IMG/VR virus record: IMGVR_UViG_3300046744_000223 | Span: 1 to 64,000 of that record | Source: a virus | Direction: 5' to 3' (one strand) | Length of the DNA stretch: 64,000 nt | Shown here: positions 13,780-63,812 of the stretch, piece after piece | How the letters are laid out: each line of letters begins with the position of its first letter | Numbering within the stretch: the first letter of the stretch is position 1 | Position numbers and translations under genes: made by a program | The notes under the pieces: model-generated | Told to the model about the DNA's origin: nothing | Database searches by the model: none | The model's input: the letters and a program-made list of their open reading frames with translations, nothing else

Positions 13780-15378
13780 CTATGCGAGTGTTTCTAAACC
13801 ATTAACGTATACCTTACCGTAGAACTCACCTCTTACCATTTGCTTAGCGTAACGTGTCATTACACCTTTTCTTGGAGTGAAGTTTGTTGGGTCATATACC
13901 AACGGAGTCATGATTAATGGAATGTATGGAGCGTAAACTGCGCCAGTTTCCAAGAATTGAGCACCCTTGAAGCCCATCAATACGACATTAGATGTCAAAT
14001 ATGGGTTTTTGTATACTTGGTAACGATTCGCGAATGAACCTACTTGAGATACACCCATTGCGAATTGCATATCAGCACCAGTACCATTAGCAGCAAATCC
14101 TGGGATTGATTCCAAGATAGTTGCAACGTCAGGAGAAACTACCATAAAGTTAGCTCCACCTCTCATGGTCTTAGCATGAATTTGGTTAGATACTCTCTGA
14201 AGAACAGTACCAAGAGTTTGGAACCATTGTTGTTGAGTGTAACGTTGTACGTCATTTGCTGCAGGTGCAGTAAATGCTGAACCATTCCATGAAGAACCTA
14301 CTTTAGCAGACCAGTGACCTTCAGTCAATGCGTTTTCCATCAACATATCTAAGATTTCGAGGTCGATTTCTTGAGATACGTATTCAGACAACATTGAAGT
14401 CAATTCAGCTTCAGCATCAATACTATGGTAAGCGTTCAAATCTTGAGCGAATTCCGGCGTCCATTGTGCTTTCAACTTACGAGTCTTAGCAACGATTGGC
14501 ACAGAGCGTAGCTCTACGTTCAATTCTGGAATACCTATGTCAGCACCAGTTGTGTCTTCGAAGTCACCACGAGTGATGTCAGTTGGTTGTTTCTGATATT
14601 TAACAGTTACATTACCAAAGTCAGTATCACGAGCAACGAATACGATGTTTTCACCAGCTAAACGAGTGTACTCAGCGTAGTACTCGTCAACACCTTCAAG
14701 TGAGAATGCACGTGCACCTTCACTATCGAAGTTTGCGATAGACGCAGTTTGAATAGCAACAGTTACGAGGTCAGCATCGTGAACAGCCCATACTGATTGA
14801 GAGAATGCTGAATCATAGTTGATATCAGACATACCCAAAGATGCAGTAGCGTAAGCGTTTGCACCAACTGAAGTAGCTAATGCTTGAGCAGCAGACTCAT
14901 CTTCATTGATAGAGTATCCGAAACGACCTGCACCATAAAGACCTTCAGAAACATCACCAGCAACTTCGGTAACACCGAATACTGAGTCAGTTTGTGAATT
15001 TTTACCAGCACCAGTTTCGAAACCTGGCTGAGCAGTACCATACTTGAAGTCAAGATAGAATACAAGACCTGAAGGTAGGTTCATTGGTTGTACTGAGACG
15101 AATTCTTTTGCAGCGATTTCGCTGAAGATACGTCTTACTAATGGAAGAGCGACACCGGCCCACTCTTCAGAGTTTGCAGCAGTACCTGTGCTTGATGCTT
15201 CAGATACTAATTGCTTTGCTTGGTTTTCCAACAATGTAGCAATACTTGCTCTTTCGAAGTCAGCGTCAACGCCTTCCAAAAGACCAGTTTTTTCCCACTT
15301 GGCTACAAGGCCTTTAGCCTCTTCGCTCATTTTTTTGTTGAAACCAGCAGATTCGTTTAATAGAGAATTTGTGTTCAT
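13780..15378 (-). CDS. Major capsid protein (T4 gp23-like)
   Basis: VQPMNLPSGLVFYL, AKTRKLKAQWTPEFAQDLNAYH, YAPYIPL, FTPRKGVMTRY. Confidence 0.97.
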   Translation of the reverse strand: MNTNSLLNESAGFNKKMSEEAKGLVAKWEKTGLLEGVDADFERASIATLLENQAKQLVSEASSTGTAANSEEWAGVALPLVRRIFSEIAAKEFVSVQPMNLPSGLVFYLDFKYGTAQPGFETGAGKNSQTDSVFGVTEVAGDVSEGLYGAGRFGYSINEDESAAQALATSVGANAYATASLGMSDINYDSAFSQSVWAVHDADLVTVAIQTASIANFDSEGARAFSLEGVDEYYAEYTRLAGENIVFVARDTDFGNVTVKYQKQPTDITRGDFEDTTGADIGIPELNVELRSVPIVAKTRKLKAQWTPEFAQDLNAYHSIDAEAELTSMLSEYVSQEIDLEILDMLMENALTEGHWSAKVGSSWNGSAFTAPAANDVQRYTQQQWFQTLGTVLQRVSNQIHAKTMRGGANFMVVSPDVATILESIPGFAANGTGADMQFAMGVSQVGSFANRYQVYKNPYLTSNVVLMGFKGAQFLETGAVYAPYIPLIMTPLVYDPTNFTPRKGVMTRYAKQMVRGEFYGKVYVNGLETLA

Positions 15379-15408: not shown

Positions 15409-16449
15409 TTATTTAATTAAACCAGCAAGCTTCTTAAATCTATCAGCAACAGCATTACCTTCAGAAATGATTTCTTTCTTAGGTGCAGTCGATGCCATAG
15501 GCTTAGACGCTAGTGATTCTTTTACAACTGTTTTTGGTTTTCTTGCAACATTCAAGTTTTCACCCAATGTAGCGAATACCAATTTTACTTCTCTCAAAGA
15601 TTCAGCTCTATCGAAGTTTTCGATGACTTTCATCTTCTGACCTTCGTTCAAGTCGAATGTTCTGAACAACTTGTTAGTGTAAAGAAGTTTAGCATTCAAT
15701 AAGTTTACCTCATTGATAGTACCTCTCAACGACTCGATAGTAGCATATGCTTCTTCCAATTCCGTTGATTCTTCTACTTCTTCAACTTCTTCCGATTCGT
15801 AAGTTTCTTCAACTTCTTCTTCTTCAGACATTTCTTTCAAAGTAGAAATGATTTCTTCCAAAGAAAGTTCTTCGTCAAGTTCTTCCGACTCTTCAACTTC
15901 TTCTTCTGATTCCATTACTTCTTCAACTTTTTCAGTTTCTTCAACTTCTTCTTCGTCTAAATCTTCACCTTCCATAGCAGCTTCAAGTTCAGCGATTACT
16001 GATTCAAGGTCGAGTTCATCTTCTTCCTCTTCATCCATCATCTCTTCTACTTCATCTTCTACTTCAGCTTCGTCTTCAGCTTCTTCGTCAGCTTCTTCTT
16101 CAGCTTCTTCTTCAGAATGCATTTCCTCTTCGTGAGAATCGATTTCGTCAGAAGCGATATCAGCTACCTCTTCTTCTTCATCTGATTCTAACTCTTCTTC
16201 CATTTCTTCCTCTTCAGAAACTTCATCTTCCATTTCAGAAACTTCGTCATCCGTTTCGGATTTCATCATTTCTTCCATTTCTTCTTCAACTTCTTCTTCT
16301 TCATCTAACTCTTCAGCTAGTTTATGAGAAAGCATAGATTGGAGTTTTGGAGTAAATGCCTCTTCGAGAGCCATTTTTGCGTTTGCTAATGCAGTTTCTT
16401 TTACGGCTTTAGCATCGGCGATTGCTTCTTTTAACAAATCTGATTTCAT
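15409..16449 (-). CDS. Prohead core/scaffold protein (gp22-like role)
   Basis: Extremely Glu-rich coiled coil immediately upstream of the capsid gene, strong AGGAGGT SD, ends in RFKKLAGL. Confidence 0.8.
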   Translation of the reverse strand: MKSDLLKEAIADAKAVKETALANAKMALEEAFTPKLQSMLSHKLAEELDEEEEVEEEMEEMMKSETDDEVSEMEDEVSEEEEMEEELESDEEEEVADIASDEIDSHEEEMHSEEEAEEEADEEAEDEAEVEDEVEEMMDEEEEDELDLESVIAELEAAMEGEDLDEEEVEETEKVEEVMESEEEVEESEELDEELSLEEIISTLKEMSEEEEVEETYESEEVEEVEESTELEEAYATIESLRGTINEVNLLNAKLLYTNKLFRTFDLNEGQKMKVIENFDRAESLREVKLVFATLGENLNVARKPKTVVKESLASKPMASTAPKKEIISEGNAVADRFKKLAGLIK

Positions 16450-16600
16450 TTGTTACCTCCTAAATTAAACTTTTGGATAATAAGATTATTTTAAATCTTA
16501 ATAGAATATAATAATATAATATGAATCACTCATTAGATTGGAGTGATATTAATTTACAATAAGTATGTAAATTTTACAATAAACGATAAAGTGTTTACTA

Positions 16601-16858
16601 TTATCTTGCTTCTTGTTGTCTACGGACCCAATCAGCTCGTCTAGCATCATTCATTTGTTTACGTTTACGTGTAGTCGGTTTAGTGTATTCCCTATTTTGC
16701 TTGATAAGGTCAATTACACCATTATCTTTCATAATACGTTTCCACTTTCTAAGTGCTGCTTCAATGTTATTATTAATAACCTTTACACCATTAGCATGAC
16801 CATATAGGAATAACTCCTCACGTTCTTTTCTTACTTTTTTTTCTCGTTTGTATGACAT
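16601..16858 (-). CDS. rpsU: Phage-encoded ribosomal protein bS21
   Basis: VKVINNNIEAALRKWKR...IKQNREYTKPTTRKRKQ matches the S21 pattern, with an N-terminal extension of about 20 aa. Confidence 0.88.
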   Translation of the reverse strand: MSYKREKKVRKEREELFLYGHANGVKVINNNIEAALRKWKRIMKDNGVIDLIKQNREYTKPTTRKRKQMNDARRADWVRRQQEAR

Positions 16859-16876
16859 ATATTTTATTTAATAAAC

Positions 16877-16907
16877 AAAAAACACCCATCGAACTAACGA
16901 TAGGTGT
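16877..16907 (-). terminator. Terminator-like hairpin directly upstream of bS21
   Basis: Minus strand ACACCTATCG-TTAGTT-CGATGGGTGT-TTTTT. Confidence 0.65.
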
Positions 16908-16932
16908 CTATAAATAGTGTTTGTAAAGTTAA

Positions 16933-17091
16933 TTAAGACATTTTATCTAAACCATCTTTAAAATCAGATATAAGATTTCCAAATTCTTTTTGTTTATCGG
17001 CTGGTAACCTCTTAATCTTTTTAAGGTTCTTTTTGATAAATGATGAAAAATCAACACTTATTTCTTGAAGTCGTTCTAAATCACGATTCAT
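16933..17091 (-). CDS. Small hypothetical protein (52 aa, not in ORF track)
   Basis: MNRDLERLQEISVDFSSFIKKNLKKIKRLPADKQKEFGNLISDFKDGLDKMS, with TAATG coupling to the upstream gene. Confidence 0.7.
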   Translation of the reverse strand: MNRDLERLQEISVDFSSFIKKNLKKIKRLPADKQKEFGNLISDFKDGLDKMS

Positions 17092-18068
17092 TATTTCTTA
17101 ACCTTACCTTTTTTGATATCTCTTTCAAGTTCTTCTGCAGCTCTTAATACATCTACAACTGATATATTAATTGGTACTTGACGATATTTTGATATTTTAC
17201 GAACTGCCAACATCACAATTCTTTTTTCTTCGCTAGAAGCACCTTCTCCAATAATATCTTCGGTTACTGATTCAAAGTAAAGGTCAGACATCTTATCTTG
17301 AAGTTTAGGGTTTTTAAAATCAAACTGATACTTTTCCATTGCTCTTCTGGCTTTCAATGCCGATTTAGCAGCAACTACAAAGTATCCTTTTTTAGAACCA
17401 CCTAATTTCTTTTGTAGTTTATTTGCTTGGTCTTTAGTACCAATACCCTTTTGGTTTCCCTTTGGGTCTATTATTGAGTATTTGTTTTCACTTAGTATAT
17501 CAGTTAGTTTCATTGACGATTCTTCATTTACAGATTCTTTAGCGAATTCTTTAGCGTTTTCCTTGTCGTCCTTATCAACGTCTTTTACTGGAAATTCTTT
17601 ACCATCTACTTCGAACTCATCATCACCATTAGCAATTGCTTTCGCTCTTGCAGCGCCGAATTCGTTACCTTCTTTGATTTCGTAATACTTACCAAGAACT
17701 TCGCCCATCTCATCGTAACAAGACTCAAGTCTTTGTTGTAGGGTATTTACTTCTTTGATTGTATTAGTAAATACTTTGAATGACTCATTCATAGACTTCA
17801 TGTGTCTACCAACAGTTACCTTGTCAAACCAATCTCCAGTTTCCTCAAGAGTTACCTTGTGTGCAGTCTCTACAATACCTTTAATAGATTCGTATACTTC
17901 TGCCAAATTACCTGAACGGTAGATTGACTCACCGAATTTCTTGTATTCAGAAACAGCTTTAAGGAATTCACGCTTTTCTTCGTTAGTCATTCCCTTTTGG
18001 GTTTCTTCATCGTTTATCTTCATACGTTTGTATGTAGATTCGTTTAGTAGTTCTTTTAAATTTTTCAT
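17091..18068 (-). CDS. Probable internal head protein (modular)
   Basis: MKNLKELLNE leader, ESVNE/ESVTE linkers, next to the prohead protease. Confidence 0.55.
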   Translation of the reverse strand: MKNLKELLNESTYKRMKINDEETQKGMTNEEKREFLKAVSEYKKFGESIYRSGNLAEVYESIKGIVETAHKVTLEETGDWFDKVTVGRHMKSMNESFKVFTNTIKEVNTLQQRLESCYDEMGEVLGKYYEIKEGNEFGAARAKAIANGDDEFEVDGKEFPVKDVDKDDKENAKEFAKESVNEESSMKLTDILSENKYSIIDPKGNQKGIGTKDQANKLQKKLGGSKKGYFVVAAKSALKARRAMEKYQFDFKNPKLQDKMSDLYFESVTEDIIGEGASSEEKRIVMLAVRKISKYRQVPINISVVDVLRAAEELERDIKKGKVKK

Positions 18069-18706
18069 TATACTCCAAAATCACATTCACAATATCCACC
18101 AACCTCACACATGATGTCTCTCATCATATTGTTAGCTTTATTGTATTTATAAGTATTCTTTTTAACAGTAACCGATTCGTTTATCGTACCCTCGTTTGTT
18201 GGTGAAAGAAATGCTCCATGAGTTGATGGGTTAGAAACAAAGTCCCAACATATCAAATCAAAGTCTTGTTCTACTGCGACGGTGTCTTCACCAATTTGTT
18301 TTACGGAACCCATACCTCTTGACGAGATACCAACAGTACACCCAGCTTTTACTAATTCTTGTAAAATCTTTCCAGCTGGTGTATTTAGTATTTCAACTGT
18401 TCCAACAACATCATCACCATTCCATGATACTTCACGGATAATGTGTGATGTGTTCTTTAATTCGACTACACCACTTTCAGGATGGTCCAATTCACCATAA
18501 GCACGATTCTCTTTGATTTCACGTCCTTGGTATTTCTTTACTTCACGTTCTAAGATGTTACGTGGATACACTCTACCATTTTGGTTTTTAGCATCAGCAC
18601 GTTGTAACACACCATTTACTAAGAAACGACCAGTCTGGTCCTTTGCTTCTTGTAACATAGTAGGTGTTACTTCAAATATCATTGTATCTACAAGTAGTTG
18701 TTTCAT
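18068..18706 (-). CDS. Prohead core protease (T4 gp21-like; start revised to MKQLL)
   Basis: NQNGRVYP, GELDHP, SH, GISSRGMGS, DFVSNPS. Confidence 0.95.
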   Translation of the reverse strand: MKQLLVDTMIFEVTPTMLQEAKDQTGRFLVNGVLQRADAKNQNGRVYPRNILEREVKKYQGREIKENRAYGELDHPESGVVELKNTSHIIREVSWNGDDVVGTVEILNTPAGKILQELVKAGCTVGISSRGMGSVKQIGEDTVAVEQDFDLICWDFVSNPSTHGAFLSPTNEGTINESVTVKKNTYKYNKANNMMRDIMCEVGGYCECDFGV

Positions 18707-18849: not shown

Positions 18850-19380
18850 CTATGCGCTCAATTCTTTTAGATTACGAGCAACTTTCAACATTCTTTCTGA
18901 AATCTTACCGAATCTTTTTTGTGTAGACTTCCAATATTGTTCATTAGATACACCCATTTCGTTTTTCAACTTAGTGTTCTGATTTACAATCTTTTCAACT
19001 TCGTACATCATTCGATTAATCTCTTTGATAGATTTATTTACTTTTTGATGTGCTTTCATAGAGTCATCTTTTTTGTAATCTCTATAAGTAGCTTCGATTA
19101 TACGTTCTAGCTTATCTTCTAATTTCTTCATAGTTTTAGACTCCGTATTTATCTTTTTAGTTTTCTTTGGCTTCTTGTAACCAAGTACTTCTATGTGGTC
19201 AGTATCTAAATCATCCTCATCTTCACTTTTAGAAAAAGCGTTTGGAGTTTTAGGTGGGCCTGCTCCCCCATCCATATTAGATGTTACATTAGCCTCATCT
19301 ACCTCTTCCTCTTTAAGAGTTTCGATTGACTCCAGCTCTTCAAACTTACCTTCCAATTGTTCTAGTAAGAATTTAGACAT
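18850..19380 (-). CDS. Hypothetical head-module protein (start revised to MSKFLL)
   Basis: GGAGG upstream of ATG 19380. Contains GPPKTPNAF and a coiled-coil C-terminus. Confidence 0.65.
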   Translation of the reverse strand: MSKFLLEQLEGKFEELESIETLKEEEVDEANVTSNMDGGAGPPKTPNAFSKSEDEDDLDTDHIEVLGYKKPKKTKKINTESKTMKKLEDKLERIIEATYRDYKKDDSMKAHQKVNKSIKEINRMMYEVEKIVNQNTKLKNEMGVSNEQYWKSTQKRFGKISERMLKVARNLKELSA

Positions 19381-20218
19381 TCGAAACCCTCCGTAACTCT
19401 TGTAAAAGTTCATGATATCTTAGAAGAGATAAAATCTGATTCTCATTGATTATTTTAGAATTTGTAATGTTATCAATAAGATTTACAGTTTCATTTAGTT
19501 TTATTTGTGCTACTTTATCCGATACATCTACTGCTTTGAAACTTTTCTTTAGTTTCTTAACTTCAGTTATAACAAATGACTTTAATTTAGTTGAATTATC
19601 AACGTTGTTGATATAATTCTTTAAAATCATTTTTTGTTCTTCTGATAAAGTTGTGTACTTTGAGTTAAATGATTCGACCAAGAACTTATAAGCCAACAAC
19701 CTAACTTCTTTAGATTGGTTGTTATACTCAGTATTATCAGATTCAGTTACAATCTCAACATTTGATTTAGTGATTACTTCGAGTATTGTATTTTTACAAG
19801 TAACGTACTCTTTTGGAGATGCCAAACTTGTATTTTCAAACATTTTGTAAACCGATGCCATTTCACGATAATTAGTAACACGATATTTAAAGAAGTCCTC
19901 CATAACAAATGACTCTTTGATTGATTTAATCAAATTATACTTTTGTCTACGAAGAATACCCTCATTTAAACTACCACGTTCTTCCAATACAATATTTAAA
20001 AACTCCTGAGCCTGATATTGGTTATCAAAGTTTTCTTTAGTTAAAGATTGATACAATTTTAACTCTTTGTTTAATTCAGTACCTCGTTTGAAATGTTTCT
20101 TTATTATTTCCAAGGCAAGAGAATCTTTGTTCGCAAGTGTATCGGATGCGATTTGCTTTACGAGTAATTCAAATAGAATACCCGTATTTTTAAACTTGCT
20201 GTGTTTTAATTTGGCCAT
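19373..20218 (-). CDS. Hypothetical protein between portal and protease
   Basis: 281-aa helical ORF starting MAKLKHSKFKNTGILFELL. Confidence 0.75.
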   Translation of the reverse strand: MAKLKHSKFKNTGILFELLVKQIASDTLANKDSLALEIIKKHFKRGTELNKELKLYQSLTKENFDNQYQAQEFLNIVLEERGSLNEGILRRQKYNLIKSIKESFVMEDFFKYRVTNYREMASVYKMFENTSLASPKEYVTCKNTILEVITKSNVEIVTESDNTEYNNQSKEVRLLAYKFLVESFNSKYTTLSEEQKMILKNYINNVDNSTKLKSFVITEVKKLKKSFKAVDVSDKVAQIKLNETVNLIDNITNSKIINENQILSLLRYHELLQELRRVSNV

Positions 20219-20267: not shown

Positions 20268-22118
20268 TCAAATCGTGTCATCGATAAGATTTCTCTCATC
20301 TAATAAACCCGATTCAGCCTTTTCATCTTCTAATAAAGATTCATTTAGAATCTTAGTTGTTTTGCGTTTAACGTTTTTCAAAGATGATTTCAAAGCTTGT
20401 GTTTGCTCGTAAGCAAGTGGTGAATTTTTATACTTATGATATGTTGCGGCTGGTTTAATATCGGTCTTTTGACCAAGTGGGTCTCTACCAAATGCACTAT
20501 CATCCGTTTTATAGTTACCTGATGTTGATGGTCTACCAGCACCATCAAACCCACCTTCAGGAGAACCACCATCATCGTTAGGTGTTTGATGCATTTGTGC
20601 CAAATCGTGTGGTGTACCAAATGACTCGCCAGTTTTAACTGGATCATTACCTTCATCTTCAATTTGAGCTTGTCTAAATCCGAGTTTTAAATCTCCAATA
20701 ACTTTACCTTGTTCAAGAGCCCACTCATCATCACTCATATTGAATATGTTCTTATACATCCATTCTTGAGAAACCATTTTGAGGTCTTTCATATCAGATA
20801 CCAATGATACCTTCTCAGACCACAATGCAGCTTTCTCTTGTTCGTATATGATAGATGGGTTTGTAAGTTCCAACTCAAAGTTAACAAGGTCTTCGTTTTC
20901 GTAACCTTGTGAGTATAAGTGAACGATTGCAATCTTAGTTAATTCAGAAAGAACAATCTTTTGGATTCTCTCAACTGAACGTGCGAATCTGATATCCTCT
21001 TGTGCTAATGTTGCTTTACCTTCAACTGACTCATCGTACCCAATAAATGCTTTTGGTACTTTTAGTGCAGCCATCATTCTATTTCTTAGGTATTCGATAT
21101 CATCAATACCACCGAATTCCATACCACTTAATGTATCTATCTCAGTACCACTCTGACCACCACGAACTGGTAGGTAGTAATCATCTAACATATTCATTAG
21201 ATTAAACTTGAGATTGTAGTCACCAGTATTTTGGTCAAGATATGGTACTTTCTTCATTTGGTCAATGATACCTCTCATGTGGTTATCAACTTCACCAGGT
21301 GGAATGTTACCTACATCAATTTTAAATGTACGTCTTTCAGGTGCTCTCATAATTCTATGAATCATCATAGCATCTTCCATAAGAGTCAACTGCTTCCAAG
21401 TCTTTCTTGCACCTTCTAATAACGAACGACCATATGGAAGGAAGTTTGTATCTGCTAATAAACGGAAATGTGCGATTTGATAGAACTCAAAGTAATCAGC
21501 GTTCTTGTTTACACTTGCACCATGAGCAGCACCCATTGAACCTAATTTAAATCTTACTTCGTATGGGTTTTCGGGATTAAACCCTTCTTCTCTTTCTACT
21601 TCGTATGCTGACATTGGTGATACGTTTACAATACCAACACCTTCTTCAATATCAAGATGTAGGAAGTAGTCACCATATTTATTCATACCACGAATCCAAG
21701 CCCAAAGATTGAACTCAATATTCATTACATCGTAAAATAGGTTGTGAAGAATCTTTTTTACGTTCTCGTCATCAGTTTTAATTCTAAGAACATCACCCAT
21801 GTCATTTTTTAGAGTACACTCATCGGCGTATATATCTAATACTGAGTTTAGAATGGAATCTTTATCCATTGCTTCGTAATCAGTATATAGTTCTAATTTA
21901 TTTGAATGATAATTAAATTGATTGTTATACGTTTCCCAATTTCTACGAGAGGTATGCATTCTACCAAACCTATCGTAATAAGATGAACCACGGAGGTTAC
22001 CCTGAGATTGTAGTCTTTGAGTATCGATAGTTTGGGTACGGCCCTTACCAATCCTACGGACAACAACTTGAGTGTTGAATAATTTTCCTAACCTATTAAA
22101 TAGTGATTTATCTGCCAT
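20268..22118 (-). CDS. Portal protein (T4 gp20-like)
   Basis: LMEDAMMIHRIMRAPERRTFKIDVGN, DDYYLPVRG, GTEIDTLSG. Confidence 0.96.
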   Translation of the reverse strand: MADKSLFNRLGKLFNTQVVVRRIGKGRTQTIDTQRLQSQGNLRGSSYYDRFGRMHTSRRNWETYNNQFNYHSNKLELYTDYEAMDKDSILNSVLDIYADECTLKNDMGDVLRIKTDDENVKKILHNLFYDVMNIEFNLWAWIRGMNKYGDYFLHLDIEEGVGIVNVSPMSAYEVEREEGFNPENPYEVRFKLGSMGAAHGASVNKNADYFEFYQIAHFRLLADTNFLPYGRSLLEGARKTWKQLTLMEDAMMIHRIMRAPERRTFKIDVGNIPPGEVDNHMRGIIDQMKKVPYLDQNTGDYNLKFNLMNMLDDYYLPVRGGQSGTEIDTLSGMEFGGIDDIEYLRNRMMAALKVPKAFIGYDESVEGKATLAQEDIRFARSVERIQKIVLSELTKIAIVHLYSQGYENEDLVNFELELTNPSIIYEQEKAALWSEKVSLVSDMKDLKMVSQEWMYKNIFNMSDDEWALEQGKVIGDLKLGFRQAQIEDEGNDPVKTGESFGTPHDLAQMHQTPNDDGGSPEGGFDGAGRPSTSGNYKTDDSAFGRDPLGQKTDIKPAATYHKYKNSPLAYEQTQALKSSLKNVKRKTTKILNESLLEDEKAESGLLDERNLIDDTI

Positions 22119-22191: not shown

Positions 22192-23766
22192 TTAAAGTAA
22201 CCAAGTTAAATCTTGGTCCTTTCCATGTTGGTCTTTTTGTTTCCATGGGTCTTGGCCGAGGTTACGGTTAGAATAAACACCGGTACTTGACTTACCCATA
22301 TGCCCTAATGTAGTTCTCGTTAAATCCATACCCTGTTGTCTTAATTTTAATGCCGTATCACGTACCCAAAGACCGGTGGAGAATGATATCACCAAGTCAT
22401 CATTATAACCACGTTGTGCTTCAGCTCTACTACCATTCCATATGAATACAAACAATTCGTCTATAAGTCTCTTAGAATGGATTATAGGGGTTCTCTCTCT
22501 CATATACATATCTAACTTAGATATTACTAATGGTCGAGTTCTACTTGTCATAGAAAATCCAGGAACCATATCCTCTTTACGTTTTAAGTCAAAACCTTTT
22601 CTGAGATGTATATCATCATCTATGTAACCTACATCTCTATATGAATAATATAGATTATCATAGTTTCTATCAATTACTTCTTGTATCACTGCCCAACCAA
22701 TATTTGCGTTTTCAATCACCAACATTGCGTTGTTCCATTCTGCCGCTACCGAAGTTAACATTGCACCATATTGTTTAGTATCAATCTTACCTTTGTATTC
22801 TGCTACTTGTTCAACAGTCTCTACATCGAATACATGGAATGCTGAATAATCGGATGAGTCACCTCTTGCGACATCGGCAACTACTACATAATCACGAGAA
22901 TAATTTGGATAGTCCCATAACCAATAGTTACCATCAAACCCACGTTTTTCAATTGGGTCTTTTACATAAGTTTCTTCGTACCATTGTAATGTAGCACCTT
23001 CAACTACCGTATGGCCAGAACTGATAAAGTCACAATCACACTCTTGTGCTGCGCCCTTAGTTCCTAATAATTTCTCCTGTTCATCTCTCCACGATTGATT
23101 TCTCTCAGGATGTACCGTCCAATGTAATTCGGTTGGATTCCACTGGTCTCCTTGTTGACCTTGAACCCAAATCTTGTGAAACCAATTACCCACACCATTT
23201 GGGGTAGATAATACAATAGCACCACCACCGGTAGAAAGTGTAGATTGTGCCGAAGTCCAAATCTCTTCTACATTGTTAATGAATGCAGCCTCATCAATAA
23301 TCAACATCGACAATGCCTCAGAACGACCAGCATCACCTGCAGCAGATGTTGCTTTAATTTGAGAACCATTACGTAATCTTAGAGATAACTTGTTATCCTC
23401 TTCAGTTTGACCTTTTAACCACGTTGGTAAGTTATCGTGCATGAATCTTACCTTAGTAACAAGGTTCTTAGCAACCTCTTGTTTGGTTGCAATTACAAGA
23501 ATGTTTTTGTCTTCGTGAAATAACATCAACCATAGTGAATATCCGGCTGATAGTGTTGAGATACCCAACTGGCGTGACTTGAGGATTACGTTGAATCGTT
23601 CCTCATTTACACTTGTCATTAAGTCTTCTTGAAATGGGTAAAGATTAAATAAAATCTTGCCACGGTGGGGGTGTTGGATATAACAATACTTCTTGAAGAA
23701 ATATACTGGATCCTTAGCACACTTAACCCACTCTTCTCTGATTAGTGTTTTTATATCTTTTGGCAT
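22192..23766 (-). CDS. Terminase large subunit (gp17-like)
   Basis: LYPFQ, KSRQLGIST, IIDEAAF, LSTPNG, ADVARG, GYNDDLV. Confidence 0.96.
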   Translation of the reverse strand: MPKDIKTLIREEWVKCAKDPVYFFKKYCYIQHPHRGKILFNLYPFQEDLMTSVNEERFNVILKSRQLGISTLSAGYSLWLMLFHEDKNILVIATKQEVAKNLVTKVRFMHDNLPTWLKGQTEEDNKLSLRLRNGSQIKATSAAGDAGRSEALSMLIIDEAAFINNVEEIWTSAQSTLSTGGGAIVLSTPNGVGNWFHKIWVQGQQGDQWNPTELHWTVHPERNQSWRDEQEKLLGTKGAAQECDCDFISSGHTVVEGATLQWYEETYVKDPIEKRGFDGNYWLWDYPNYSRDYVVVADVARGDSSDYSAFHVFDVETVEQVAEYKGKIDTKQYGAMLTSVAAEWNNAMLVIENANIGWAVIQEVIDRNYDNLYYSYRDVGYIDDDIHLRKGFDLKRKEDMVPGFSMTSRTRPLVISKLDMYMRERTPIIHSKRLIDELFVFIWNGSRAEAQRGYNDDLVISFSTGLWVRDTALKLRQQGMDLTRTTLGHMGKSSTGVYSNRNLGQDPWKQKDQHGKDQDLTWLL

Positions 23767-39012: not shown

Positions 39013-39944
39013 ACTCTATACAATTCATACTCAACCAACTTTCTAAGGTCCATTGGTGGAGTATTATAAATTAATTCATTAACATTTTCATAGCCCATAT
39101 CTGATGGGTCTTGGTCACCTAAGTCTACAAGGTGAGTCTCAATTCCATACGACATAAACTTCTTTGTAAGACGCAGAGCATTCTTTATAGCATCTGAATC
39201 TAATACAATATACAACTTTTTTACGGAATTTCCAATTATTTTCTTCTCTAATTCAGATTGTATAGCTTTACCAAATAATGGTATTGCGTTTCTTCGTATT
39301 GATAATGCATCAAATGCACCTTCACATAACACCAGTGGTGTATCCCAATTGATAAGTAATTCAAAACCCACAATGTCCTTAGATACCTTTGGGTTTTTAT
39401 GTTTGTATTGAGTCTGATAGAATGACCTACCAACAAAGAAGTTTAATTTACCACGTTCATCATACGATGGAATTATAATCTTATCTCTATATTCACCCTC
39501 ATCACAAAACCCAATATTATACTTTACAATGTCTTCAGGCCTAACACCACGACCTAACAAATAGTTTAGTGCGTGTTTCCTTTTGTAAGAGTTTGATGGG
39601 TTATAAAGTGGTTGGAATTCTTTGGGAAGCTCTACTTGCTCTACAACGTCTATATTATCGTATTCACTTCTATAACGATTTACCTTACTGAATATCGAGT
39701 TGTACTCATCCCAAGTTGACTTGGATACGCGAAGTTTCTTGAAGAGTGTCTTGATACTTCTACCCTTCTCATCAGAAATCCAACAATGCCACGGGTTGTT
39801 TCCTTTAGAATTAATCCGTATATTAATCTCTAACTTTGGTTTGTAATGGTCAACAAATGGTGAATAGAATGCATAATTATCCCCACTCGTTTTCTTGGAT
39901 GACCCAAGTACGGACTCTAATAATTCAAGTAGTCTTTCTTCCAT
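39009..39944 (-). CDS. DNA primase (DnaG/gp61-like, TOPRIM)
   Basis: WHCW, IIIP...FFVGR, CEGAFDA, LDSDA, DPSD. Confidence 0.88.
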   Translation of the reverse strand: MEERLLELLESVLGSSKKTSGDNYAFYSPFVDHYKPKLEINIRINSKGNNPWHCWISDEKGRSIKTLFKKLRVSKSTWDEYNSIFSKVNRYRSEYDNIDVVEQVELPKEFQPLYNPSNSYKRKHALNYLLGRGVRPEDIVKYNIGFCDEGEYRDKIIIPSYDERGKLNFFVGRSFYQTQYKHKNPKVSKDIVGFELLINWDTPLVLCEGAFDALSIRRNAIPLFGKAIQSELEKKIIGNSVKKLYIVLDSDAIKNALRLTKKFMSYGIETHLVDLGDQDPSDMGYENVNELIYNTPPMDLRKLVEYELYRV

Positions 39945-39949
39945 AACTA

Positions 39950-39980
39950 CTAATATACGAAATTATTTTGAATAATCAAA
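39950..39980 (-). promoter_or_regulatory. Bacteroidota-type -33/-7 promoter upstream of primase
   Basis: TTTG-N19-TATATTAG on the minus strand. Confidence 0.55.
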
Positions 39981-57355: not shown

Positions 57356-57985
57356 TTAAATTATTTTATCGATGATACCACACTCAAGTGCTTTTTCTGC
57401 TGACATAAAGTAGTCTGAAGAAGATATACCTTCCCAATACTCTTTGTCCATTTTAGAATTTTCAGCCATAAGTTGATTACAATCATTCTCTAACTCTTCA
57501 GAGAATCGTGCGTTTGATTTAACATCACTCAACTTACCTACTGCGACTGTTGATAATTGATGTACCATAATCTTAGAGTGTTTAGATGCAGCCCGTAGAC
57601 CAGTACCACAAGTAAGTAGAAGTGCTGCTGCTGACATAGCTGACCCTCTTACAATGATATTAAACTTAATACCTTGAGCTTCTTGAGACTTCATGTAATC
57701 TATCAAAGCTAAAGTTTCGATTACATCCCCACCAGGAGAGTTGAGTAATATATTAATAGTATTGATATCACCATTTATCTTCAGAAGTAATCTGACCTTA
57801 GATACAATGTCAAATGTTAACCCACTTGATATTTCATCTTGTATTAAGATAACATTGTCCGTGGTGTCTATACCATAATCGAATTCACGATAAAAACTTC
57901 TATGGTCATCTTTAGAGTTATCCGTATCATGATAACTTAAACTAACTCCAGCAGAGGTTGGTGTTGTGTTGTATAGTTCATCCAT
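57356..57985 (-). CDS. clpP: ClpP-like serine protease
   Basis: LNSPGGDV, AMSAA (Ser), MVHQ (His), DYFMSAEKALECGIIDKI (Asp). Confidence 0.9.
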   Translation of the reverse strand: MDELYNTTPTSAGVSLSYHDTDNSKDDHRSFYREFDYGIDTTDNVILIQDEISSGLTFDIVSKVRLLLKINGDINTINILLNSPGGDVIETLALIDYMKSQEAQGIKFNIIVRGSAMSAAALLLTCGTGLRAASKHSKIMVHQLSTVAVGKLSDVKSNARFSEELENDCNQLMAENSKMDKEYWEGISSSDYFMSAEKALECGIIDKII

Positions 57986-60208: not shown

Positions 60209-60406
60209 TTATGTTAATTCTTCAAAGTCAATTGAAGGAATTTCCTCACAAAACCAATAGTATCCATCTCTTTTTAAAACAGTATCAGCGTTAAGGTGTT
60301 CCTTCCATACATCAATTATCGGATTTCGGTCAATTTTAATCTTTTTAACCACGATGAACAACTTATCATTAAACGTAACTTTTTGCGACCTGAAGAATCT
60401 ATACAC
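60209..60406 (-). CDS. Hypothetical protein
   Basis: 65-aa ORF coupled to the Hsp20 gene. Confidence 0.65.
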   Translation of the reverse strand: MYRFFRSQKVTFNDKLFIVVKKIKIDRNPIIDVWKEHLNADTVLKRDGYYWFCEEIPSIDFEELT

Positions 60407-60750
60407 TATTTAACTTTTACTTTTATCGATTTAGCCTTACGGTCCTCATACTTAGGTATTGATACAATAAGTAACCCATCCTTAGCAACAGCAGATGTTT
60501 TATTTATATCAAACGCATCATGTATCTTGTATCTCTTTTCCAATTTACGATGTTCCTTTTCAGCTTTGATTTCAATCATTCGGTCAGCAACAATAACATC
60601 GATGTCTTCATTGGACAATCCAGGCACTGCGAATTCCATAGTTAGTACATCATCTTTTAAAAAAGCAGTATTTGAATTAAGGCCTGCTTCATTCCCCCAC
60701 TCCCCCAACATAAAGTCGGAGACCATTGTGTTTAGTCTATTAAACGTCAT
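60406..60750 (-). CDS. Small heat shock protein (Hsp20)
   Basis: FAVPGLSNEDIDV...AVAKDGLLIVSIPK. Confidence 0.88.
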   Translation of the reverse strand: MTFNRLNTMVSDFMLGEWGNEAGLNSNTAFLKDDVLTMEFAVPGLSNEDIDVIVADRMIEIKAEKEHRKLEKRYKIHDAFDINKTSAVAKDGLLIVSIPKYEDRKAKSIKVKVK

Positions 60751-63775: not shown

Positions 63776-63780
63776 ATATA

Positions 63781-63812
63781 CAAATATACAAAAAAAATAT
63801 TAAACATCCAAA
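63781..63812 (-). promoter_or_regulatory. Bacteroidota sigma-A consensus promoter
   Basis: TTTG-N20-TATATTTG is an exact match to TTTG/TAnnTTTG. Confidence 0.7.

Follow-up and report, generated by a model that had tools for sequence, protein, structure and literature searches.

The bS21 gene and the phage head module

The window analysed here covers the initial 64 kb of a 172,940-bp IMG/VR virus record from a marine, T4-like phage, with a GC content of 35.7% and nearly all of its genes on the minus strand. A gene for an 85-amino-acid protein (16601..16858, minus strand) matches the bS21 family (Pfam PF01165, Ribosomal_S21, 4.5e-13) and lies within a head block of the T4 type, where the prohead protease gene precedes it and the scaffold and capsid genes follow. 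The sequence-only reading had placed bS21 in the head module, and both the Pfam match and the protease and capsid neighbours bear this out. In the order of transcription the block consists of TerL, portal, three small genes, the protease, two ORFs of 325 and 52 amino acids, bS21, a scaffold-like gene and the capsid gene. TerL, the large terminase (22192-23766, minus strand), and the gp20-like portal protein (20268-22118, minus strand) were identified by synteny and by 52-57% identity to annotated genes of Flavobacterium phage immuto, and neither gene has an SD. For the head-module gene at 18850-19413 (minus strand) the longest ORF opens at 19413, and an ATG at 19380 is preceded by GGAGG; in its orthologues, which carry AAGGAG(G), the protein begins at the position of residue 12 of this ORF, and the real start is probably 19380, which gives a gene at 18850..19380. 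The prohead core serine protease of the T4 gp21 type (18068-18706, minus strand) matches Peptidase_S77 (2.9e-31), and the 325- and 52-amino-acid ORFs upstream of bS21 occupy 16933..18068 on the same strand, the former with a conserved GGAG.

Downstream of bS21, a 346-amino-acid protein (15409-16449, minus strand) that matched no Pfam family was assigned as scaffold-like from its position and acidic make-up, and its gene is orthologous to the immuto gene that adjoins the major capsid protein (MCP) gene of that phage. The protein is extremely acidic, with long runs of Glu and Asp, and the annotation of its immuto orthologue as 'DNA polymerase phi-like' is probably wrong. The Gp23-type MCP itself (13780-15378, minus strand; Pfam Gp23, 1.5e-77) has an upstream AAAGGA that is conserved in relatives. 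Elsewhere in the window are genes for Hsp20 (60406-60750; Pfam, 1.7e-10), also preceded by AAAGGA, and for a ClpP protease (57356-57985, minus strand; Pfam CLP_protease, 7.3e-30) with an SD-less leader. ClpP is present in the bS21-bearing relatives G005, G007 and Mel-JY01 and absent from G006 and immuto.

The bS21 start is immediately preceded by an A/U-rich, SD-less stretch (16859..16879, minus strand; duplex energy +1.0), and the leader lacks an SD in all close relatives and throughout the window's clade. Among 61 unique phage bS21 genes only 10 have even a weak AGGA, versus 42% of neighbouring genes (p=2e-5). Just upstream stands a terminator-like hairpin with a T-run (16880..16909, minus strand), and a pattern of GGTGT plus T-run recurs at this place in relatives. 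The late-type motif CTATTTATA (16909..16917, minus strand), a member of the class TAYTTATA, overlaps the 5' arm of the hairpin; transcripts arriving from upstream of bS21 would end at the hairpin, and those begun at CTATTTATA might lack the full hairpin and continue into bS21. The intergenic region between bS21 and the scaffold-like gene (16462..16600, minus strand) holds two small hairpins and a variant late motif, ATACTTATT, at 16566-16558. It is followed by a perfect SD, AGGAGGT (16455..16461, minus strand), 5 nt before the scaffold ATG and with a duplex energy of -11.6 kcal/mol, just where the first reading had noted one. Relatives with protein identity as low as 62% retain this SD as AGGAG(A/G), and it is absent at the orthologue in the bS21-less immuto.

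Features of the phage bS21 protein

The 85-residue protein scores 49.1 bits against Ribosomal_S21 (cut-off 27), with residues 25-75 covering profile positions 2-53 of 55, and 49.7 bits in a whole-genome profile search; phmmer matched it to 34 solved bS21 chains. Relative to host-type bS21 it carries an N-terminal extension of about 20 residues, such that 30 residues precede the NI(D/E)xAL helix versus 10 in the Flavobacterium johnsoniae chain 7jil_z, and it is therefore not of host length. Further features are a KPTT motif, Trp77 and a basic helix at the C-terminus. Between the KP motif and its end the protein has a net charge of +7, unlike the less basic Bacteroidia-type tail, and the KPTT motif and tail resemble chains of the E. 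coli type. It scores 26 and 22 bits against non-Bacteroidota bS21 and 17.5 bits against that of F. johnsoniae. An AF2 model (mean pLDDT 76) predicts strands at 15-17 and 26-28 and the helices expected of a bS21, at 32-46, 48-56 and 61-84. In this model strand 15-17 pairs with the native N-terminal strand, and a single long helix carries both Arg74 and Trp77. Mitochondrial bS21m proteins make up the seven best Foldseek matches to it, all of them weak (E about 0.2). No close cellular relative of the phage family was found among 185,579 species genomes, so the donor lineage of the gene cannot be named. A search of the phage for homologues of bS18 and bS6 found neither, leaving bS21 as the sole candidate among the proteins of the anti-SD pocket.

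The residue corresponding to Tyr54 of F. johnsoniae bS21 was located with the help of a 38%-identical relative (L028), which aligns to 7jil_z with a Tyr on Tyr54. In both MAFFT and hmmalign alignments Arg74 of the window protein falls in the Tyr54 column, with no gap from the KP motif, which agrees with the earlier claim that Arg has replaced the Tyr. The column is non-aromatic in 44 of the 66 related loci that bear bS21. Trp77, at i+3, is nearly invariant in the window's clade; it was considered as compensation for the lost Tyr and rejected in that role because it accompanies the Tyr and Arg forms alike.

Host, promoters and the distribution of SD motifs

Bacteroidota ribosomes normally ignore SD start signals. 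The C-terminus of a 985-amino-acid phage protein is a T9SS type A sorting domain (TIGR04183, 50 bits; PF18962, 3.5e-15), and the pattern TTTG-N20-TATATTAG occurs 13 times on the coding strand, with no occurrence on the other strand and none expected by chance; its geometry is that of the -33/-7 promoter known from Bacteroidota. The nearest cultured phage without bS21 is immuto, which infects Flavobacterium and whose capsid protein is 55% identical. A Bacteroidota host, as first proposed, is very probable because of the sorting domain and the promoters, and the Flavobacterium-infecting relative points the same way. Megablast of 7 kb against 50,697 phage records gave no match, nor did tblastn of bS21 against the same records, the latter result being explained by the short query and the large database.

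In the window, host-type promoters stand before genes with non-structural products (primase-like, endonuclease I, ClpP and UvdE). One such promoter (39945..39980, minus strand) ends 5 nt before the ATG of the primase-like gene, which has no SD, and another, TATATTTG (63776-63811, minus strand), also ends 5 nt before an ATG. Transcripts from these two promoters would have little or no leader. A second motif, TAYTTATA, has 45 copies on the coding strand versus 12 on the other; 27 of the 45 copies are intergenic in a genome with 6-8% intergenic DNA, and copies precede structural operons, bS21 and the scaffold-like gene. By analogy with T4 we infer that TAYTTATA is a late promoter.

SD 4-mers in this genome peak at -13..-8 from the start codon and are concentrated on late genes. 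An SD core precedes 56-58% of the genes directly behind a late motif versus 6% of those behind host-type promoters (MWU p=3.6e-4), and, when genes are assigned by operon, a pairing energy of dG<=-4.5 is reached by 40% of late versus 15% of host-type genes (Fisher p=0.001), against an internal-ATG background of 18%. The enrichment is real but moderate, and most late SDs are weak (4-6 nt), the only strong one being that of the scaffold-like gene. These figures, which include the comparison of anti-SD pairing energies proposed in the first reading, uphold its suggestion that SDs are concentrated on late genes. Its individual sites also stand: every listed SD is present, including the GGAGG before the internal start at 19380 that orthologues use; the leaders at 39944, 57985, 60142, 63775, 62647 and 57349 and that of bS21 itself are SD-less; and the two exceptions, TerL without an SD and Hsp20 with AAAGGA, are as described.

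Association of bS21 and SD motifs across the lineage

SD use was compared across 123 loci with related capsid genes (50-98% identity) together with cultured phages. For each locus, a six-frame HMM search established whether bS21 was present, the residue at the Tyr54 position was noted, and the leader of every called gene was examined for SD motifs; gene starts were assigned crudely, as the first ATG. The share of genes that have an SD 4-mer averages 0.44 in the 22 bS21 loci with an aromatic residue in the Tyr54 column, 0.42 in the 44 with a non-aromatic residue, and 0.07 in 57 loci (849 genes) in which the protease-to-MCP interval is present and bS21 is not. The comparison of relatives with and without bS21 that the first reading had called for thus covers 66 and 57 loci, respectively. 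When positions are pooled, the profiles of both bS21 classes rise sharply at -13..-9, and that of the loci lacking the gene stays flat at 1%.

Individual genomes follow the same pattern to differing degrees. In the 160 kb of immuto a profile search gave no PF01165 match, and SDs precede none of the 40 genes behind the late motif that it shares with the window phage and 3% of its 215 genes overall. An independent relative of the Arg form (G005, 98% complete) has SDs on 46% of late versus 9% of host-type genes (MWU 1e-4), a complete genome of the Tyr form (G007) shows a weaker late/early split, and in Mel-JY01, of the Lys form, strong SDs precede 50% of the genes behind the late motif versus 6%. 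On the capsid tree the presence of bS21 changes five times, and the bS21-less clade is the lower in SD motifs in all five contrasts; with five transitions the treekit pair test gives p of about 0.25 and the 5-of-5 sign test 0.06. A second scan, around immuto, enlarged one bS21-less clade and added no independent transitions, and one bS21-less clade (L110, L128 and L130) still has 22-31% SD-like motifs. As a correlation over five independent transitions, the coupling of bS21 to SD-led late genes is well supported by these sequence comparisons.

Which feature of the protein accompanies SD use was also considered. Only two bS21 loci are low in SDs (L037, 0.10; L126, 0.13), and they hold the only two complete bS21 genes with host-length N-termini; the N-terminal extension is the feature common to all SD-associated phage bS21s. 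A lead from these observations is that SD use may track phage bS21 with an N-terminal extension, the contrast between minimal and extended forms resting on n=2. Across loci, SD use showed no correlation with extension length (Spearman p=0.10 for the SD 4-mer fraction and p=0.30 for the strong-SD fraction) or with the charge of the C-terminal tail (p=0.33 and p=0.67, respectively). The Tyr54 column likewise gave no separation, since Tyr/Phe and non-aromatic loci have equal SD frequencies and the same positional peak, and four switches between Tyr and non-Tyr forms on the capsid tree bring no consistent difference in SD use. The loss of Tyr54, to which the sequence-only reading had given the explanatory role, is therefore not supported as the cause of SD use. 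The association of bS21 with SDs does not require Arg74 or the basic, E. coli-like tail, although these may strengthen the effect.

Comparison with known systems

The position of phage bS21 beside head genes and the idea that it replaces the host protein are already published. The freshwater Bacteroidetes myophages of Chen et al. (2022; ISME Commun 2:31, PMC9723584) share the head module of TerL, portal, protease, bS21 and MCP, with bS21 two to six genes from the MCP gene and Hsp20 and ClpP nearby, and replacement of the host protein by phage bS21 was proposed for them too. Their bS21 is expressed late, together with late genes (PMC9723584); for the window phage the corresponding observation is the late-type motif upstream of the gene. 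All 61 of the 61 bS21s in that study keep Tyr, His or Phe at position 54, whereas the marine clade described here has Arg and the Mel-JY01 clade Lys, which makes the marine Arg clade a new detail. The analysis of Chen et al. did not extend to SD motifs in their phages, and they concluded that phage bS21 keeps the anti-SD blocked; our literature search found no paper linking phage bS21 to SD motifs on phage genes.

The protein family and the logic of the pocket are those of F. johnsoniae (PMC7797042, PMC9976891), in which Tyr54 of bS21 stacks on A1534 (Jha 2021, PMC7797042) and removal of Tyr54 or of the C-terminal part of bS21 yields ribosomes that favour strong-SD mRNA. Ribosomes with bS21 Y54A or deltaC made 3-5 times more protein from strong-SD mRNA, and weak SDs gained nothing from either change (PMC9976891). 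The switch in F. johnsoniae is the absence of bS21 and autoregulates a single gene, the host rpsU, which carries the strongest SD in its genome, opposite to the SD-poor phage bS21 genes (PMC9976891). In the case proposed here a foreign bS21, encoded by a gene that is itself SD-less, would instead switch many ribosomes to dozens of late genes, most of them with weak SDs.

Two other systems bear on the proposal. Pelagibacter phage HTVC008M (Mizuno et al. 2019, PMC6375957) is likewise a T4-like marine myophage that encodes a bS21, and the protein enters E. coli ribosomes, a result that is also cited in PMC9976891. It differs in that its bS21 has 67 amino acids and is 54% identical to that of its SAR11 host, in that this host is not SD-blind, and in that no SD dichotomy has been described for it. 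In Francisella, according to the accounts in PMC9578407 and PMC12262407, alternative copies of bS21 also change the mRNA preference of the ribosome; these are cellular paralogues, selective for leader features of virulence mRNAs, and as far as those accounts describe them the system involves neither phage takeover nor an SD-blind background.

A proposed late switch in translation and its alternatives

These observations can be accommodated by a translation programme with two modes, in a Bacteroidota host blind to SDs, with phage bS21 as the late switch, an explanation whose chances of being right or wrong we regard as evenly balanced. Early and middle genes behind the host-type -33/-7 promoters would be translated by unmodified host ribosomes from A/U-rich or near-leaderless starts. 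Late transcription from TAYTTATA would then yield an SD-less bS21 mRNA together with virion mRNAs, of which roughly 35-60% carry an SD at canonical spacing. The SD-less leader would allow bS21 to be made by ribosomes not yet converted; the protein would enter host 30S subunits, either displacing host bS21 or occupying vacant sites, and would make the 3' tail of 16S rRNA available for SD pairing, and SD-led late mRNAs would gain over SD-less host mRNAs. Release of the anti-SD by phage bS21 is plausible by analogy with the published Y54A and deltaC ribosomes, and the takeover model in general is plausible because these show that an altered bS21 suffices for SD reading. More specifically, and tentatively, phage bS21 could be a ribosome-conversion factor whose N-terminal extension, aided in this marine clade by Arg74 and the basic tail, makes SD-blind ribosomes SD-reading late in infection. 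A speculative helper in the exchange is the phage ClpP, given the suggestion by McNutt et al. that a phage protease might remove host bS21 (PMC9976891).

Several observations run against this programme. Since bS21 is itself a late gene, any effect would come only after late mRNAs appear; TerL and the portal gene have no SD; and most late SDs are weak 4- or 5-mers, whereas weak SDs did not benefit from the altered bS21 in F. johnsoniae. One bS21-less clade has an intermediate level of SD-like motifs, and stacking by Trp77 instead of the lost Tyr might leave the anti-SD hidden. Differences between hosts could also underlie part of the bS21-SD association, Mel-JY01 having been recorded from Microcystis. 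All of the evidence for takeover is correlative.

The alternative that survives best, although it appears unlikely, is that bS21 and SDs have no functional link: phages with both would have hosts in which highly expressed genes are led by SDs (for example other Bacteroidota lineages, cyanobacteria or proteobacteria), and bS21 would serve ribosome maintenance or counter-defence by replacing degraded host bS21 or countering translational stalling. The recorded host of Mel-JY01 would fit such an account, as would its SDs, which are less restricted to late genes, and the proteobacterial-type KPTT motif and basic tail of the window protein; counter-defence ideas for phage bS21 have, moreover, been published. 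The window phage nevertheless carries a T9SS cargo protein and Bacteroidota-type promoters, and SDs on its early genes are at or below background, which is unexpected in an SD-using host. In the wider lineage, phage bS21s with the Tyr54 that is a Bacteroidia signature also accompany SDs, and sister clades differ in bS21 and SD use together.

It is quite improbable that phage bS21 simply mimics the host protein and leaves the anti-SD sequestered, as in the reading of Chen et al., with any mRNA selectivity arising from other contacts and the motifs being purine-rich enhancers or relics. Many members of the lineage keep Tyr54, and Trp77, which in the model lies at i+3 on the same long helix, could stack on A1534. 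Most of the SD-like motifs are, in addition, as weak as AGGA or GGAG, and upstream adenines are described in PMC13000457 as a known start signal in Bacteroidia. Against this, the motifs are complementary to the anti-SD and peak sharply at SD spacing, they are conserved across 62-98% protein identity, and they vanish in bS21-less relatives that share the late promoter; relic motifs would not be confined to late genes.

A further account, in which the change of Tyr54 to Arg itself frees the anti-SD and only Tyr-less phage bS21s redirect ribosomes to SD mRNAs, must also be considered doubtful. In its favour are Arg74 in the Tyr54 column, the better scores of the window protein against non-Bacteroidota bS21 than against that of F. 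johnsoniae, and the converse finding that the Tyr-bearing L028 scores best against F. johnsoniae 7jil_z and 9i5v_9 (a 63-amino-acid bS21 with the same A-x-Y motif). Y54A alone, moreover, gave 3 times more strong-SD product and raised the output of an AGGAGGU reporter in vivo by 70% (PMC9976891). Strong SDs (dG<=-6) are also more frequent in non-aromatic than in aromatic loci (0.32 vs 0.22), with a naive p of 0.002 that ignores relatedness. These points are outweighed by the matching SD frequency and positional peak of Tyr/Phe loci, by the four tree switches that bring no consistent change, and by a Tyr-form relative (L021) with AAGGAGG on a head gene. What is new from this window is a tested negative for the Tyr54 hypothesis and the documentation of a large Arg/Lys clade.

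Ribosomal protein bS21 is the one most often encoded by phages and has been proposed to hijack ribosomes, and we know of no feature shown so far that would let ribosomes hijacked in this way tell phage from host mRNA. A replacement bS21 combined with SD-led late genes would supply such a discriminator in an SD-blind host, and the coupling of bS21 to SDs gives the phage protein a testable job. If phage bS21 does switch host ribosomes late in infection, this would be a natural example of specialised ribosomes made by a virus and would provide a practical rule for annotating and host-typing Bacteroidota phages. If it acts as a conversion factor, virion mRNAs would have a private translation channel that is closed to host mRNAs, which would explain why bS21 is the ribosomal protein most commonly carried by phages.

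Promoter motifs in two cultured relatives

Two cultured members of the lineage invite separate comment. In immuto (L035 / W01), 27 of 36 copies of TAYTTATA are intergenic, and the pattern TTG-N19-21-TAnnTT(A/T)G has no intergenic copy; its early promoters therefore differ from those of the window phage. Mel-JY01 (L036 / W02, PP395634.1), for which Microcystis is the recorded host, is a member of this lineage with bS21 at the corresponding place, and of its 35 TTG-N19-21-TAnnTT(A/T)G motifs 18 are intergenic; its recorded host may deserve a second look.
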